Assembly: GCA_002309475.1 (NCBI GenBank)
Contig: DBXJ01000077.1
Span: forward strand, 3,471-63,682
Reading direction: 5' to 3'
Source of the DNA: Bacteroidales bacterium UBA1215
GTDB lineage: Bacteria > Bacteroidota > Bacteroidia > Bacteroidales > WCHB1-69
Length of the DNA stretch: 60,212 nucleotides
Positions 8,163-54,209 of the stretch are shown in pieces. Below the pieces are notes generated by a model. It saw only the letters and a program-made list of their open reading frames with translations, was not told where the DNA came from and made no database searches. The translations under genes were made by a program, and so were the position numbers. How positions within the stretch are numbered: position 1 is the stretch's first letter; every line of letters begins with the position of its first letter.

Positions 8163-8651
8163 ATGAAACAAATAAAAAACAATTATAAACTTTTAAATAC
8201 AATAACAATGAAACTGAAATACATAATGCCTATGTTAGCAACGGTCGTCCTGATAGTGGCAGGATTAGTCCTTTTCGCAGGATGTGAAGAGGAAGAAAAT
8301 AAAGTAAAAGAGAAAAACTATATGGATATTCCTTTAGAACAATATCTAAAAGGAACATGGGTACTTGAGAAAGAAATTCCGACACTCAATTATGATTTTT
8401 TTCAAGATACGCTCATTTTTAATAATGGATACTTTGTTAGCAATTGTGAAACATCTGATCATATTCCCTATCAAACACAATATGTCTATTATCCCTATAA
8501 TGATACAGTTAGACAAAATGATACAACTTACTATACAAGATTATTCATTGAAAGATTAGGACCTGATGAAATACTTATTTACAATTATCATCCATGCTAT
8601 GATTATACTTGTGCAGTTAAAAATTCAGCGTTTAGCCGTATAAAAAATTAA
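8163..8651 (+). CDS. Hypothetical lipoprotein (AT-rich gene)
   Basis: 162-aa ORF. The more likely start is ATG 8208 (MKLKYIMPMLATVVLIVAGLVLFAGC, lipobox FAGC). The mature part is Tyr/Asn-rich and no family was recognised. Confidence 0.6.
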   Translation: MKQIKNNYKLLNTITMKLKYIMPMLATVVLIVAGLVLFAGCEEEENKVKEKNYMDIPLEQYLKGTWVLEKEIPTLNYDFFQDTLIFNNGYFVSNCETSDHIPYQTQYVYYPYNDTVRQNDTTYYTRLFIERLGPDEILIYNYHPCYDYTCAVKNSAFSRIKN

Positions 8652-8806
8652 GGTATGAAAAAATATAAAGCCACATTCAAGTCACAAATGCAAATTTGTT
8701 AAACAATTATTTTTTATAAAAGTAGAAAAAAATTTTTTCAATAGATTTTTTTAAGGAAAATTATCTTTTTGTCCGTCTTTATTTTCTAAATCTCAACAAA
8801 AAATGC

Positions 8807-8814: not shown

Positions 8815-8871
8815 CAAGTTTTTATTCTTTTTCTCTAAAATAGAGAGATAATATAAAAAAATAAAGAAAAG

Positions 8872-11493
8872 ATGACAAATAAAGAAATAAGAAAAGCATT
8901 TTTAGATTTTTTTCGCTCTAAAGAACATCATATAGTTCCTTCAGCACCCATAGTGGTCAAAAACGACCCTACACTTATGTTTACCAATGCCGGCATGAAC
9001 CAGTTTAAAGATATCTTTTTAGGCAATCAGCCTGCCAAATATCTACGAGCTGCCGACAGCCAGAAATGTCTGCGGGTATCCGGCAAACACAACGATTTGG
9101 AAGAAGTCGGCCGCGACACCTACCACCACACTTTTTTTGAAATGTTGGGCAACTGGTCTTTTGCCGACTATTTCAAAAAAGAAGCGATAGAATGGGCATG
9201 GGAGTTTTTAACAGAAGTAGTAAAAATCGACAAAAACAATCTCTATGTTACCGTATTTGGCGGAGATGCAAACGACCACACCGAAAAAGATACGGAGGCA
9301 TATAATTTTTGGAAAAATATCATCAGCGAAGACAGAATTCTCTTCGGCAATAAAAAAGACAACTTTTGGGAAATGGGCGAACAAGGTCCTTGCGGTCCTT
9401 GCTCGGAAATTCATATAGACATCAGAAACGAGGAGGAAAAAAAGAAAATCTCCGGACGTGAATTAGTCAACAAAGACCATCCGCAAGTGATAGAAATATG
9501 GAATTTGGTATTTATACAATACAACCGTAATGCCAATGGACAATTGGAACTGTTGCCGAACAAATATGTCGATACCGGCATGGGTTTTGAACGATTGTGC
9601 ATGGTGTTGCAAGACAAACAATCCAACTACGAAACCGATATCTTCCAACCATTGATACAAGCCATTGCACAAGCCGCACACGTAAACTACGGCGACAATG
9701 CCGAAAAAGACATTGCCATGCGAGTGATTGCCGACCACCTGAGAGCCGTTTCGTTCGCCATAACAGACGGACAACTGCCTTCCAACACAGGTGCCGGCTA
9801 CGTAATCAGACGAATTCTCCGCAGAGCTGTCCGCTACGGCTTCACCTATCTGGGATTTGAACAACCTTTCATCTGCGAACTGTTGCCGACATTAGTCAAT
9901 CAAATGAAAGAACAATTCCCCGAAATTGAAAAACAAAAAGATGTCGCCTATAAAATCATCAAAGAAGAAGAACAGTCATTTTTGAGAACTTTGGCATCGG
10001 GCATACAAAAATTTGAGCAATATATTGCCTCTCACAAAAACGAAAAAGTCATCAACGGCGATTTTGCCTTTGAACTATTCGACACCTACGGCTTCCCTAT
10101 CGACCTCACCCAATTGATGGCCGAAGAAAAAAATATGACCGTTGACATGGTGGCATTCGAAAAAGGACTGGCAACACAAAAACAACGCTCCCGCTCGGTA
10201 GCACAAACCGAAACCGACGACTGGCAAATAGTCAACGATAGCAATGAAAATACCGATTTTGTCGGCTACGACACTTTGACAACAGAAACTAAAATATTGA
10301 AATACAGAAAGGTGACTGCAAAAAATCAATCTTTCTACCAACTAATTCTCAGCCAGACACCTTTCTATGCAGAAGGCGGTGGTCAAGTGGGCGACAAAGG
10401 AATATTAAAAAACAATACCGAAACCATACAAATTACCAACACAAAGAAAGAAAACAATTTATACATTCATTTGTGCAACCAATTGCCAAAAAATCTTTCG
10501 GCGACTTTCACTGCACAAGTAGATGCCGACAGCCGAAAATTAACGGAAAACAACCATAGTGCCACTCACCTGCTGCAATTCGCTTTGCGAAAAGTTTTAG
10601 GAACACACATTGAACAAAAAGGGTCGTTTGTCAATGCAGACAGACTACGTTTTGACTTCTCCCACTATGCCAAGATGAGCAAAGAAGAAATAAGGGAGAC
10701 AGAAAAAATTGTCAATCAACTGATTCGACAAAATATTCCATTAAACGAACACCGCAATGTTCCTATCCACGAGGCGGAAAAAATGGGAGCAATGATGTTG
10801 TTTGGAGAAAAATACGGCGACAAAGTACGTGTTATTCAATTTGGCGATTCTATTGAATTTTGCGGCGGCACCCACACAAGTGCCACAGGCAATATCGGCT
10901 TATTCCATATCATATCCGAATCTGCCATTGCCGCCGGCATCCGTCGTATTGAAGCTGTAACTGCCATCGGTGCAGAAAATATTGTCTATGCACAACAAGA
11001 TACTTTAGAAGAATTACGTAGCTTGTGCAACAATCCCGCCAACTTGACTTTGTCGGTCAAAACTTGTATAGAAGAAAACAACAAATTGAAAAAACAAGTG
11101 GAAGGCTTGCTCAACGAAAGAATCAACGCTTTGTGCCAGCAATTGCTAAAGCAAGTGGAAACTATCGGAGATATAAAGATAATCCGCTATTGCGGCACCG
11201 AAGATGCCGACTTTGTCAAAAAATTGACGGTAATGCTAAAACCTCATTTTGAACACGAAAAATTCGCCTTTGTAGGTGGTAGTGTCTTTAACGACAAGCC
11301 TACCTTAACTTTGTTTTTCACTACTCCGATGACAGAAGCAGGTTTCCATGCCGGCAACATCATCCGACAATCTGCCAAAGTGATAGAAGGCGGTGGCGGC
11401 GGTCAAAACTTTTTGGCAAGCGCCGGCGGCAAAAAAGCCGAAAACATCCGGCAAGCAATTGAAGAAACTGTTAAACTCATTACTGAAAAATAA
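8872..11493 (+). CDS. alaS: Alanine--tRNA ligase
   Basis: 873 aa. Class II AlaRS motifs FTNAGMNQFK and HHTFFEMLGNWSF, editing-domain HSATHLL, and a C-terminal GGGGGQ DHHA1-type tail. Confidence 0.95.
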   Translation: MTNKEIRKAFLDFFRSKEHHIVPSAPIVVKNDPTLMFTNAGMNQFKDIFLGNQPAKYLRAADSQKCLRVSGKHNDLEEVGRDTYHHTFFEMLGNWSFADYFKKEAIEWAWEFLTEVVKIDKNNLYVTVFGGDANDHTEKDTEAYNFWKNIISEDRILFGNKKDNFWEMGEQGPCGPCSEIHIDIRNEEEKKKISGRELVNKDHPQVIEIWNLVFIQYNRNANGQLELLPNKYVDTGMGFERLCMVLQDKQSNYETDIFQPLIQAIAQAAHVNYGDNAEKDIAMRVIADHLRAVSFAITDGQLPSNTGAGYVIRRILRRAVRYGFTYLGFEQPFICELLPTLVNQMKEQFPEIEKQKDVAYKIIKEEEQSFLRTLASGIQKFEQYIASHKNEKVINGDFAFELFDTYGFPIDLTQLMAEEKNMTVDMVAFEKGLATQKQRSRSVAQTETDDWQIVNDSNENTDFVGYDTLTTETKILKYRKVTAKNQSFYQLILSQTPFYAEGGGQVGDKGILKNNTETIQITNTKKENNLYIHLCNQLPKNLSATFTAQVDADSRKLTENNHSATHLLQFALRKVLGTHIEQKGSFVNADRLRFDFSHYAKMSKEEIRETEKIVNQLIRQNIPLNEHRNVPIHEAEKMGAMMLFGEKYGDKVRVIQFGDSIEFCGGTHTSATGNIGLFHIISESAIAAGIRRIEAVTAIGAENIVYAQQDTLEELRSLCNNPANLTLSVKTCIEENNKLKKQVEGLLNERINALCQQLLKQVETIGDIKIIRYCGTEDADFVKKLTVMLKPHFEHEKFAFVGGSVFNDKPTLTLFFTTPMTEAGFHAGNIIRQSAKVIEGGGGGQNFLASAGGKKAENIRQAIEETVKLITEK

Positions 11494-50522: not shown

Positions 50523-50659
50523 GACAAAATAACACTTCATTATTTGGACGTCCATGAGATAGAATAAAATTTAACTTCCTACATTTTTTTTAAGTTACAC
50601 AATTTCCCACTCAATCCTGCGTTATAAAAGTATATTAACTTTTTAAAATATATTCAAAT

Positions 50660-51124
50660 ATGAAAACTGTAAAAATAACAATTGAAGGCACATTAAAAAT
50701 CGTGTGCTACTGTACAGAAAAGGAAGATTTTTGGGACAATTATTATATGGCTTTTGGTTTTGGTAAAATTGATTCCATAAGTGCTACTATTGATGGCAAA
50801 CGCAAGGATATCCAAAATGAAATAGGAGAAGATACAATTGTTCGCAACCTGCTTCGCTCCCAATTTAATTCTCGCGAACAGGGTCTACCTGTAGAGGTCG
50901 GTGAAGACGAAGATCCCTCCGCTATAGTAAATTATGAAATTCAATTGAAAGATAATGAGGAGTTTGATCCTTCTAAACTCCACCTCCAAAAGTCCGTTAA
51001 GGAGTTTCCGCAATATCCGGTTTGGATTGAGGCCACATCAATTCTATACAAGCGTAAAAAGATTAATACGACATCACACCTTGGTGACTATGAAGGAGTT
51101 GAGCCGGAGTTTGAAGTCGATTAA
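50660..51124 (+). CDS. Hypothetical protein (island gene A), no signal peptide
   Basis: 154-aa ORF in an AT-rich island, followed by a strong terminator. Its C-terminal pattern is shared with island gene D (see findings). Confidence 0.6.
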   Translation: MKTVKITIEGTLKIVCYCTEKEDFWDNYYMAFGFGKIDSISATIDGKRKDIQNEIGEDTIVRNLLRSQFNSREQGLPVEVGEDEDPSAIVNYEIQLKDNEEFDPSKLHLQKSVKEFPQYPVWIEATSILYKRKKINTTSHLGDYEGVEPEFEVD

Positions 51125-51154
51125 ACTACTCTGAAAACACATCTTCATTAATAA

Positions 51155-51192
51155 ATAGGAGGTGAGTTAAATAATCACCTCCTATTTTTTTT
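51155..51192 (+). terminator. Rho-independent terminator of island gene A
   Basis: ATAGGAGGTGAgttaaataaTCACCTCCTATttttttt: an 11-bp perfect stem plus a T-run. Confidence 0.8.
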
Positions 51193-51354
51193 GTCAATTT
51201 CCCTATGACAACCAATATCCGATTTCATAGAAAACATAATTTGTTCCCTTTAAAATATACTAGTTTGTAAATAAGTTATCCAAGCGAGATGGATTGTACG
51301 AAATTGACACCGGATTTTTGGTATCATGAAAAAATTTTCCTATAGTAATTAATA

Positions 51355-52002
51355 CTATCTATCTAATTCTTTCATCCATTCTTCCAACTTATTTTCAATA
51401 TCACCTTTTTTCAACAAAGGTCTCTTACCTATTTTATTTCCTACAAATTTGTCAAAATCATACAAAAATCTATCTAAATCCTCAAATTGAACTCTATAAC
51501 CATGATAGCCATATTTCTCTATTTCATACAATTTATTGAGATAATCTATATAGATATCTATTAGTGTTCCATTATCTTTAACATTTTTGTAATTATCTAC
51601 AGGTTCAAAATCATAAGCAGCTCTAAAAGCTCGTTCATCTATAATTTGATACACACTCGGATTTAAAAACCGTAGATAAGTAGATGCCATAGGAAGCCCG
51701 ACACCTCCTGTTGAAAGAAGATCGGTTAACACATCTCTGGTCTTAGCCTCATCTAATTTTCTAAGTGATTTTAACTTATTGAGATTGTCCAAAGTTTCGT
51801 CCGTTATCTCCGAAGGGCGGTTTGTTTTCCATTCCCTTATTTGGTGAATATTTTCTCTCGTCAGGTCTTTTCCACGAAGACCATCTAACAAATTCGTTAT
51901 TTCTGGCAAATATCCAAATGGTACACTAATTTCTTTCCCGTCTTTCTCTATGCTATAGGAGGGACCACTCTTTTTTTGCGTTTGATTTAAATTTCGCTTC
52001 AT
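51355..52002 (-). CDS. Helix-hairpin-helix (HhH-GPD/OGG-fold-like) protein, putative DNA-glycosylase-like (island gene B2)
   Basis: 215 aa. LLSTGGVGLPMASTYLRFLNPSVYQIIDERAF: G100-V-G102 then Asp122, the same +20 spacing as GVG118 to D138 in E. coli endonuclease III. Position +2 is Pro, not Lys. There is no C-terminal Cys cluster. Confidence 0.5.
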   Translation of the reverse strand: MKRNLNQTQKKSGPSYSIEKDGKEISVPFGYLPEITNLLDGLRGKDLTRENIHQIREWKTNRPSEITDETLDNLNKLKSLRKLDEAKTRDVLTDLLSTGGVGLPMASTYLRFLNPSVYQIIDERAFRAAYDFEPVDNYKNVKDNGTLIDIYIDYLNKLYEIEKYGYHGYRVQFEDLDRFLYDFDKFVGNKIGKRPLLKKGDIENKLEEWMKELDR

Positions 52003-52080
52003 TTTTTAAAATTATTAATGGTAAATATATGCTTATTATTTGATTATTAAACTTTTATCTATTTTAGAGATGTCCGTATG

Positions 52081-53061
52081 TTAATCCCAAAAGTCATCAC
52101 GATATTCACCTTTATAGTATAGGTCTATCGCATAGCCATGTTGCAGACTTTCGATAAAATCTTTAGAAGATATATTGTGTGGTGATATCTTGACTGCTCC
52201 ACCTAATCTAAATTCAACTTCCTTCAAGGTGCTTGGAAATATAATCTTCTGCAATGCTGTACAACCTATAAATGCTTTTGAATCTATATGTTTCAAAGAC
52301 TCATCAAAAGAGATAGTTGTCAAAGATGTGCAATCCTGAAAAGCTTCGGAACGAATTTGAGTGATATGTTGAAAATCAACTTCTTCCAATTCCACATCTT
52401 CCGAAAAAGCATCTGAACGCAGAATATAACCACTATTCATTCCAATTATTTTTTCCTCTTTGTTGATTTTTTTCAACTTTACAATGTGATCTGTATTTTG
52501 CAATGGCATATTATCGACTTCTTTACGTTCAAAAATACTAGAAATTGATTTTGGCAACCAATCATGTTCGGAAAAACCATTATCAATTTCGCCACTCAAA
52601 AAGAGCCATTCTTTGACACTTATTTGCTCAAAAGTCTCAGGATGCTGTTTAAGAAATTTGACAACTCTTGCGTTTAACTCTTTGTGTTCCTCCAGAAATA
52701 CCGATGTTAATTCCGAATAATCCCGTCTGGGAACAACTATCCATGTCTGCCTTGTACCATATGAAAATTCCCGATCTGTAAGAGAAAACGAAAAAGGACA
52801 TGTTCGTTCACATACCATACCATCAATGGTATAATCCTTTAAATGAGTGTCAACTGTATCTTTATCAGCATGATAAGTAACACAATAATAACAGCGAATA
52901 CCATCAACAATGACATACTCATCCATATCGGCCATATCAATATAAATGGTATTGGCATCTTTACAATATACGTTGGCTGGAATTCGAGGTAGATAAAAAG
53001 CTCGTTTGCCAAACATGATTTTTATATACTTTTCCAACATGAGTGTATGTTTTTCTTTCAT
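52081..53061 (-). CDS. Cytoplasmic protein with C-terminal BspA-type leucine-rich repeats (island gene B1)
   Basis: 326 aa with no signal peptide. Residues ~212-285 carry about three LRR_5-like units (...IRSEAFQDCTSLTTISFDESLKHIDSKAFIGCTALQKIIFPSTLKEV). The N-terminal 200 aa are unassigned. Confidence 0.55.
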   Translation of the reverse strand: MKEKHTLMLEKYIKIMFGKRAFYLPRIPANVYCKDANTIYIDMADMDEYVIVDGIRCYYCVTYHADKDTVDTHLKDYTIDGMVCERTCPFSFSLTDREFSYGTRQTWIVVPRRDYSELTSVFLEEHKELNARVVKFLKQHPETFEQISVKEWLFLSGEIDNGFSEHDWLPKSISSIFERKEVDNMPLQNTDHIVKLKKINKEEKIIGMNSGYILRSDAFSEDVELEEVDFQHITQIRSEAFQDCTSLTTISFDESLKHIDSKAFIGCTALQKIIFPSTLKEVEFRLGGAVKISPHNISSKDFIESLQHGYAIDLYYKGEYRDDFWD

Positions 53062-53151
53062 AATGTTATTAACGATTCCCTACACATCGTGAGGTTTTTA
53101 TAGTAACTAAAGTTGTATTAAAACTACCAATTTTGGCTTTATTTTATTTTG

Positions 53152-53159
53152 CAAAAATA
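53152..53159 (-). promoter_or_regulatory. -7 box (TAttTTTG, minus) for the LRR/HhH gene pair
   Basis: Plus strand caaaaata, ~90 nt upstream of ATG 53061. Confidence 0.35.
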
Positions 53160-53433
53160 ATCAAATTTCTAATACCAATTTCTTTTTTCTATAATTTTTT
53201 TGTTGCCAATATATATATGATTATCAATTAGTTGTATTAAAAAAAATCTTTACATTGCTTTTTGTTCTTATAGTATTCCTTCTTTATTATTTGTACACTT
53301 TTTGGAAATTTTCTGCTTCTTCCATTTAATGATTAACGAATCTGACGAATAGTTTCCCAACAATATTGTTTTTTTTCTACCACATATATGTTATCACCCC
53401 AAAATAAACATCCGTCATCGCTTATTTCCGGTT

Positions 53434-53991
53434 TTATATTTTTTTATCATAAATAAAATTATGTACGCTATTCCAACTATCCGAATCCAACAACCCTAAG
53501 ACAGCATCATCTGAATATGGTAGGAAAAAAAACTTATCAAGATGGAATTTGTCATCCATTATTACGAAGGTCTGATACCTTCTTTTTTCAATGGTTTCTA
53601 TTAAAATATAACGACCTTCCGGAATGGACACTATAGGTTTGCTTAATTCATTCCCTAAAGCTATCCATTTTTTATTCTCATAAAAATCTTCCACTCCATA
53701 GAATTCGCACAATTCCATGCTTTCTTCCTCCTTATTATAAACATAATTTCCGTCTTCGTCTTTTACACTAATAAAGAAATCTATATCACACTCTTCCGGA
53801 AATGCCTGATCCATTATATATGCTATATTATCTGCCGTGTCTCTTAGTTTATATGCTTTTTTCTCCGTAATAGTGTTAATTTTTTCATTTGAAGGAATGG
53901 GAATAAGACAAATTTCACGGGCACCTTTAGTATATACTTCTACAGTAAACTTTGAAAGACCTTTACTATCTTTTTTACTTTGTTTTATCAT
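53434..53991 (-). CDS. Hypothetical protein (island gene D), no signal peptide
   Basis: 185-aa ORF. It ends ...NFIYDKKI* inside an A7 run, and the -1 frame stays open for a further 35 codons (see findings). Confidence 0.55.
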   Translation of the reverse strand: MIKQSKKDSKGLSKFTVEVYTKGAREICLIPIPSNEKINTITEKKAYKLRDTADNIAYIMDQAFPEECDIDFFISVKDEDGNYVYNKEEESMELCEFYGVEDFYENKKWIALGNELSKPIVSIPEGRYILIETIEKRRYQTFVIMDDKFHLDKFFFLPYSDDAVLGLLDSDSWNSVHNFIYDKKI

Positions 53992-54123
53992 TTTGAATTC
54001 ATTTAAAATTTTCGCCTACTCTCTTATGGATTTTCAACTTCTTCCGTTTATGTTATTCTACTTTTTATCAATTCTATATGTTAAAAACTAATTCTATTGC
54101 CATTAATAGTATTAATGATGTTA

Positions 54124-54131
54124 CAAATATA
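54124..54131 (-). promoter_or_regulatory. -7 box (TAtaTTTG, minus) upstream of island gene D
   Basis: Plus strand caaatata, ~130 nt upstream of ATG 53991. Confidence 0.3.
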
Positions 54132-54209
54132 TAACAAAAAAACATAAAAAATTAAATAAAGACATTTTTTACTCCAACATTGAACTTATACTTGTTATAA
54201 AAAAAATGA

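Follow-up and report, generated by a model that had tools for sequence, protein, structure and literature searches.

A 215-amino-acid (aa) protein encoded in a strain-specific island of a gut Bacteroidales genome appears to be a remote relative of the Ogg2-type 8-oxoguanine (8-oxoG) DNA glycosylases, and in its Bacteroidales clade the corresponding genes lie beside genes for BspA-type leucine-rich repeats (LRR_5) more often than chance would allow. The gene was found in a 60,212-nucleotide stretch of Bacteroidales bacterium UBA1215 (contig DBXJ01000077.1; hereafter the window), where it occupies positions 51355..52002 of the (-) strand, next to a 326-aa gene that encodes LRR_5 repeats (52081..53061, (-) strand). 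An initial annotation of the window had proposed that the two genes form a sensor/effector pair of a leucine-rich repeat (LRR) protein and an endonuclease III-like helix-hairpin-helix (HhH) enzyme. We tentatively read the 215-aa protein as an accessory, probably monofunctional, Ogg2-derived glycosylase that resembles the Dag enzymes, acts on a non-canonical purine-type base and has a facultative, clade-specific genetic link to LRR_5 genes. The probability of this reading is about 0.45.

Searches with the single 215-aa sequence gave no match in Pfam, NCBIfam, PADLOC or PDB sequences. The protein belongs to a family of 39 close clusters and has 38 close relatives at 42-55% identity, none of which is annotated, and all those with a source name come from Bacteroidales metagenome-assembled genomes (MAGs). 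An exhaustive profile search extended the family to a superfamily of 1,079 representative clusters, 148 of them at E<=1e-30. Superfamily members are mostly stand-alone proteins of ~180 aa with C-termini that vary in length and sequence (the window protein ends in ...MKELDR), and fusions to Mrr_N, DUF1643, DUF6508 and Zincin_1+WG repeats were also found. Their distribution is patchy and accessory; a strict-pattern search recovered only 7 loci among 185,579 species genomes.

When two family profiles were searched against all PDB sequences, the sole matches were Ogg2-type 8-oxoG glycosylases, with E values improving from 0.004 for the close-family profile (A1) to 5.7e-4 for the broad profile (A2). 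The alignments span ~65-100 residues and run from an upstream 'NR' through the hairpin and the Asp to a C-terminal D-x3-aromatic motif, with the aligned blocks (family/Ogg2) GvgLPMAS/GIGYKEAS, IID/IID and, on 3fhg, 'aDriLY'/'LDLFIW'. A Pfam scan of 112 individual members likewise returned Ogg-HhH as the top family (26/112, best E 1.6e-5, below the curated cut-off), followed by DUF6308 as the second commonest sub-threshold match (8/112, best E 3.4e-5). One member (P0060) carries the JGI label 'thermostable 8-oxoguanine DNA glycosylase'. These results suggest that the homology of the 215-aa family to the Ogg2 branch of the HhH superfamily, and not to endonuclease III, is real but remote.

The HhH hairpin of the 215-aa protein (LSTGGVGLPMAS) comprises G100-V-G102-L-P104 and, through D122, extends over 51637..51705 on the (-) strand, as placed by alignments to 9o00/9o02, 3knt and 3fhg, in which GVGLPMAS..IID is matched to GLGMKEAS..IID. 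In the AF2 (AlphaFold2) model of the protein, which has a predicted local distance difference test score (pLDDT) of 90.2 and a predicted template-modelling score (pTM) of 0.87, the hairpin lies between helices 85-96 and 103-113. D122 is exactly 20 residues past G102, P104 occupies the HhH lyase-Lys (+2) position, and the protein has zero Cys; the residues and coordinates thus agree with what the initial annotation had described as a GVG hairpin with an Asp at +20, a Pro at the lyase-Lys position and no Fe-S Cys cluster. Since D122 is kept in 174/174 superfamily domains and G100 in 168/174, the GVG...Asp motif exceeds chance.

Three columns, K59, D122 and Y151, are invariant in an alignment of 112 sequences, and T36, W58, R62, G100, S107, R111, R127, Y154, D177, Y181 and D184 are conserved to at least 90% (174 domains/112-sequence alignment). 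The invariant K59 lies in a W58-K59-x-x-R62 motif (51817..51831, (-) strand), in which R62 is aligned with the Ogg2 'NR', and it is a candidate alternative catalytic or DNA-contact Lys. A second motif, D177-R-F-L-Y181-D-F-D184 (51451..51474, (-) strand), is placed on the Ogg2 'LDLFIW' by the profile-to-3fhg alignment, so that D177 and Y181 are aligned with Ogg2 Asp194 and Trp198. D122 is aligned with the catalytic Asp147 of MjaOGG2.

Trp198 of MjaOGG2 stacks against the flipped base, Asp194 of Ogg2 corresponds structurally to the Gln with which OGG1 hydrogen-bonds guanine N1, and a strictly conserved C-terminal Lys of Ogg2 discriminates 8-oxoG from G (PMC3397491). The 215-aa family shares with Ogg2 (COG1059; PF22175; 3FHF/3KNT MjaOGG2, 3FHG SsoOGG2, 9O00-9O03) a size of ~200 aa, the absence of an Fe-S cluster, the G-[IV]-G hairpin with an Asp 20 residues on, the D-x3-aromatic motif and the upstream 'NR'. 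However, the Ogg2 lyase Lys (K129) is replaced by Pro in the 215-aa protein, the C-terminal Lys is absent from the family, an additional beta-hairpin is found at the N-terminus along with an invariant 'LWK..R' motif, and the family is accessory and strain-specific whereas Ogg2 is core. The two families are also far apart, with E values of just 5.7e-4 to 0.05, sub-threshold Pfam matches and Foldseek template-modelling (TM) scores of ~0.3. Since both the HhH lyase Lys and the Ogg2 C-terminal Lys are missing, the enzyme is probably monofunctional and its substrate is probably not 8-oxoG.

Endonuclease III (Nth; HhH-GPD, PF00730) has the same spacing of G-V-G, +2 and +20 Asp residues (GVG118/K120/D138), but the 215-aa protein lacks the Pfam HhH-GPD match, the Fe-S cluster and the Lys. 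Ogg2 is closer, and Nth and MutY appeared as non-significant Foldseek rows only, so the proposed endonuclease III-like identity was not sustained. The resemblance to DUF6308 (PF19827) is confined to other superfamily members, including a divergent copy at locus L032; the window protein itself has no match. DUF6308 is uncharacterised, so the match carries no functional information; no mention of it was found in the literature searched.

A functional parallel may be offered by Dag1-17, which are stand-alone, sequence-orphan HhH-superfamily glycosylases from Vibrio integron cassettes that restrict phages with 7-deazaguanine DNA, with homologues reported in Bacteroidota (Getz et al., bioRxiv 10.1101/2025.10.29.685425). 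Dag1 cannot function without K118, D184 or W188, and D132 is dispensable in part (bioRxiv 10.1101/2025.10.29.685425). By published description, the 215-aa protein is like the Dags in being a stand-alone orphan HhH protein of ~200 aa in a mobile/low-GC context, and the essential D184/W188 of Dag1 parallels D177/Y181 in the 215-aa protein and D194/W198 in Ogg2. On the other hand, Dag1 is a bifunctional enzyme that depends on Lys118, close to the HhH, where the 215-aa protein has Pro, and the Dags occupy Vibrio integron cassettes with no LRR association reported.

From these comparisons we infer the following mode of action. The HhH hairpin would grip the DNA backbone, and the target base would be flipped into a pocket formed by D177, contacting the purine face like Asp194, and Y181, stacking on the base like Trp198. 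D122, as the counterpart of Asp147, would promote cleavage of the N-glycosidic bond. The enzyme would be monofunctional unless the invariant K59 replaces the lyase Lys, and its substrate would be a non-canonical, probably purine-type, base other than 8-oxoG. It may serve to attack modified DNA brought in by phages or by mobile elements of other kinds, with LRR_5 proteins in a facultative accessory function such as targeting, regulation or partner binding.

The genomic setting of the 215-aa gene is that of an accessory gene. Contigs whose encoded NadB is 100% identical align with the window at 98-99% identity as far as position 50532 and once more from 54175 onwards. Between these breakpoints the window has a 3,642-bp island (50533..54174) with four orphan genes of 154, 215, 326 and 185 aa, whereas the conspecific contigs have 535 bp with one unrelated 149-aa gene (no gene in L119). 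The GC content is ~0.30 in the island versus ~0.40 in the flanks. No mobility gene and no flanking repeats were found in the island, and a scan of the window for cassette- or integron-like repeats found none.

Among other superfamily members, the sole annotated relative, WP_268120952, is encoded on a Methylobacter megaplasmid with Hachiman HamAB on one side and, on the other, a RecB-like nuclease and type I restriction-modification (R-M) genes. Conflict-type neighbours occur in some contexts (MNT/HepT and Gp49/HTH toxin-antitoxin (TA) pairs, KilA-N, ORF6N), and PADLOC recognised only sporadic neighbours (UzuA, AbiEi, PDC-S01/S05/S31, WYL and a restriction endonuclease (REase)). Taken together, the strain-specific low-GC slot, the patchy family, the TA, Hachiman and R-M neighbours and the Mrr_N fusion make a Dag-like defence role the most likely one.

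Several results weigh against this reading. All sequence links to Ogg2 are weak and under the curated cut-off of Pfam, and Foldseek of the 215-aa model against PDB and BFVD gave no significant match; the top PDB matches had E values of 0.28 or higher and TM scores of 0.26-0.34 despite the pLDDT-90 model. The top PDB rows were mostly HhH glycosylases (AfAlkA, SsoOgg, MagIII, MjaOgg, EndoIII-3, MutY), none of them significant. The HhH/OGG-type call of the initial annotation draws support from the profile matches, which hit Ogg2 alone in the PDB and Ogg-HhH first in Pfam, but not from the structural comparison. Without the canonical Lys, the protein could just as well be a DNA binder with no catalytic activity. 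None of the four proteins of the island matched a PADLOC-DB 2.0 family, even with E values of up to 1 allowed, and neighbours in the wider superfamily are mostly ordinary genes, with defence genes sporadic. In 55 independent wider-superfamily loci no neighbour family was found more than twice, and a conserved partner across the wider superfamily was accordingly rejected.

A viral origin was also considered and set aside. No superfamily relatives were found in IMG/VR contigs or GenBank phage records, which we counted as neutral, and the only link was a weak match to phrog_24538. This phage family of unassigned function (109-position profile) matches 51355-51720, the HhH-to-D184 half of the 215-aa protein, at E 1.3e-3; P0060 matched better, at E 2e-7.

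The 326-aa gene lies on the same strand as the 215-aa gene, 78 nt upstream, as the initial annotation had reported. The spacer (52003..52080, (-) strand) was scanned and contains no TAnnTTTG box and no terminator-like site, and co-transcription of the two genes is plausible. The Bacteroidetes-type -7 box candidate (TATTTTTG, 53152..53159, (-) strand), 91 nt 5' of the 326-aa ATG, is present as described. However, TAnnTTTG occurs 86 times in the window versus 81.8 expected. Since the motif is at its chance count, the box carries no statistical weight, and we dropped it as evidence for an operon promoter. On the other side of the 215-aa gene, a hairpin at 51150..51190 (inverted repeat with 16-bp arms, 94% complementary, 9-nt loop and a T-run) separates it from the convergent 154-aa (+) gene and is likely a terminator common to both.

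The 326-aa protein consists of an N-terminal domain (~1-180), ~3 BspA-type LRR_5 repeats and a 45-aa tail. The repeats, at residues 215-282 (52216..52419, (-) strand; Pfam PF13306, E 4.7e-14), scored 52.8 bits against a cut-off of 27.7 and cover profile positions 4-70 of 127. Over residues 1-176 the protein shares 47-69% identity with stand-alone proteins of 181-200 aa (P0183-P0195; 'family X'), which have no Pfam domain. The N-terminus, homologous to these stand-alone ~185-aa proteins, has no signal-peptide-like hydrophobic stretch, in line with the initial annotation, whose repeat call also holds. Unlike typical BspA-type LRR_5 proteins, the 326-aa protein has few repeats and no signal peptide or anchor, and its repeats are joined to an unrelated ~180-aa cytosolic domain. 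No full-length counterpart was found among 5.8 billion sequences, and the 326-aa protein is thus taken, on sequence grounds, as a unique and recent chimera of family X and ~3 LRR_5 repeats. Its AF2 model is poor (pLDDT 54), and the Foldseek rows were uninformative.

Family X genes sit in islands with several LRR_5 genes. These islands also hold McrBC, GmrSD, PDDEXK_4, AAA ATPases, Vsr and WYL, or an AHH toxin/WXG100/FtsK cluster; no HhH-like gene was found in the family X islands examined. Open reading frames (ORFs) of ~92 aa recur amid this cargo (LRR_5, McrBC, PDDEXK_4, GmrSD) at L096:5670-5948, 8863-9153 and 10177-10455 and at L102:6877-7155, a pattern that might reflect a cassette leader or a boundary element present in several copies.

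We then compared the HhH-like loci of the Bacteroidales clade. Five independent contexts have an LRR_5 gene adjacent to the HhH-like one: the window, L005-7/L010 (between hisD and hisC), L008 (near groEL), L009/L012 and L106-8 (between IMPDH and GAPDH). Nine independent Bacteroidales-clade loci were scored for ORFs of 100 aa or more, and LRR_5 genes took up 5/18 flanking positions versus 0/100 other positions (Fisher p 4.9e-5). In every LRR context but the window, the LRR gene directly follows the HhH-like gene in the same orientation; in the window it is upstream. The coupling is tight in L009 (4-nt overlap) and L106 (4-nt gap). In a Paludibacteraceae MAG (L014), one 445-aa ORF without a signal peptide combines LRR_5 (Pfam E 3e-30) with the HhH-like domain (E 5e-45). 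This fusion is a singleton cluster, and recurrent LRR-HhH fusions were accordingly rejected.

The contigs L009 and L012 share 95-97% identity as far as the 3' end of the HhH-like gene. Beyond it they diverge completely, yet each continues with an LRR_5 gene, a different one in either contig. In L012 (6721-11916), a tandem-duplicated two-gene module lies directly 3' of the HhH-like gene and consists of a cytosolic LRR_5 protein (368 or 380 aa) and a 439- or 471-aa protein that starts with MDFNAFK.KVGQVFNDTKEKVSE and has no Pfam domain; L009 (95% identical to L012) has a 1,061-aa secreted LRR protein in its place. In L106, and also in L107 and L108, ~290-bp direct repeats (8423-8711 and 9993-10280 in L106; 97-98% identical) flank a KilA-N gene that follows the HhH-like/LRR_5 pair, and this repeat-flanked gene may be a small duplicated or mobile unit. 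At L032 (1279-3670), a divergent HhH-like/DUF6308-like ORF (190 aa) is followed after 14 nt by a 601-aa SAM-LRR_5-RRM_1 protein (LRR_5 E 9e-170), with a canonical superfamily member 2.3 kb beyond.

The LRR partners are non-orthologous and have only their repeats in common, and those of L005, L009 and L106 carry classical signal peptides. Four close-clade contexts (the P0032 group, L011/17/18, P0033 and P0022) have no LRR gene. In the P0022 lineage (L110:5001-7132; L111, L112), the HhH-like gene overlaps a 511-aa radical-SAM/SPASM gene by 4 nt in place of an LRR gene; a Gp49/HTH toxin-antitoxin pair and an ORF6N gene lie alongside. In several Bacteroidales contexts, LRR-less ones included, a predicted membrane protein of ~100 aa (FLWI..FISP..) is encoded one to three genes away from the HhH-like gene (L001:5586-5891, L008:8354-8650; L018, L019, L021). 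The test of co-occurrence gave a divided answer: five LRR contexts (p 4.9e-5) and one fusion speak for an association, while the partners are non-orthologous and the wider superfamily is stand-alone. The genetic link to LRR_5 is real at the level of the Bacteroidales clade but probably facultative, and the LRR protein is probably not an obligate sensor.

The sensor/effector proposal would make the pair a dedicated immune module, in which the cytosolic LRR protein senses an invader or restrains the enzyme and the HhH-fold protein is a DNA-damaging effector. The non-random adjacency at five or more chromosomal sites, the operon-like coupling in L009 and L106, the presence of an LRR_5 gene in both L009 and L012 past their point of divergence, the signal-peptide-free fusion of L014 and the cytosolic SAM-LRR_5-RRM protein behind the divergent L032 copy are all consistent with it. 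Yet the partners are not orthologues of each other, and the LRR proteins of L005, L009 and L106, bearing signal peptides, could not meet a cytosolic enzyme. The gene order is reversed in the window, where the LRR protein is a unique chimera with ~3 repeats; an LRR neighbour is missing from about half of the close-clade contexts and from virtually all of the wider superfamily; the fusion stands alone; and PADLOC gave no match. We regard a dedicated immune module as unlikely. Similarly improbable is a bipartite and occasionally fused system in a clade of gut Bacteroidales, with no described counterpart, in which an LRR_5 receptor would recognise an invader component and license or target a Lys-less Ogg2-derived glycosylase. 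Another explanation ties the HhH-like protein to the genes of LRR surface proteins, as a DNA-binding or nicking regulator or as a promoter of LRR-gene recombination and variation. A module of HhH-like, secreted LRR_5 and KilA-N genes does occur at two different chromosomal sites, LRR array length differs between contigs that are otherwise 100% identical, and the breakpoint of the variable region is the 3' end of the HhH-like gene. The length changes, however, occur only in tandem repeats of 69 nt. They are not divisible by 3, have the character of slippage or short-read assembly effects, and came with no clustered substitutions. Because the differences are confined to tandem-repeat length, we also rejected, on current data, a targeted hypermutation of the neighbouring LRR genes. 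The superfamily is also overwhelmingly stand-alone and distant from LRR genes, and the invariant Asp/Asp/aromatic pattern fits a base pocket and not a regulator. We consider this explanation unlikely.

The protein could also be an ordinary back-up enzyme of base-excision repair that handles oxidised or alkylated purines, or an HhH DNA binder that has decayed and is not catalytic, placed by chance beside an unrelated LRR gene in a variable slot. Its closest relatives are repair enzymes. At no other HhH-like locus were the island's 154-aa, 185-aa and family X genes found again, so that the island looks like assorted unrelated cargo. But the gene is patchy and missing from conspecific strains, unlike core repair genes, and it lacks the Ogg2 determinants for 8-oxoG (the lyase Lys and the C-terminal Lys). 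Strong purifying conservation of the pocket residues speaks against decay, and LRR adjacency beyond chance at the clade level speaks against a random placement. We therefore consider it doubtful that repair or decay accounts for the protein, and favour the accessory Dag-like glycosylase with its facultative LRR_5 link.

If that glycosylase is catalytically active, a widespread lineage of ~1,000 clusters missing from Pfam, NCBIfam and PADLOC would join the newly recognised accessory HhH glycosylases. The altered active site of this lineage lacks the HhH Lys but has an invariant Lys at another position, and could point to an unfamiliar substrate or reaction. Should the LRR_5 association prove functional, it would be the first role for cytosolic BspA-type repeats and a rare bacterial case of an LRR-linked effector. 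In line with the initial annotation, no LRR_5-glycosylase association is described in the literature searched. The LRR_5 searches also returned many proteins that, by precomputed Pfam hits, combine LRR_5 with signalling or DNA-damage-type domains, namely TIR_2 (P0204, P0253, P0326), Pkinase (P0348, P0351, others) and BRCT (P0398), some of which may be of protist origin; these partners show that BspA-type repeats are not confined to surface proteins.

The other two genes of the island are the 154-aa orphan gene (50660-51124, (+) strand) and the 185-aa orphan gene (53434-53991, (-) strand). They are mutually unrelated, have no match in Pfam, NCBIfam, PADLOC or PHROG, and did not recur in any other locus compared. 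A DUF805b cis-regulatory RNA motif (RF02914; 54013-54047, (-) strand) was detected with 35.6 bits, equal to the gathering score, and E 2e-6. It was considered as an element upstream of the LRR/HhH pair and rejected as such; the motif is present in a single copy in the island and lies ahead of the 185-aa gene instead, 22 nt 5' of its ATG.

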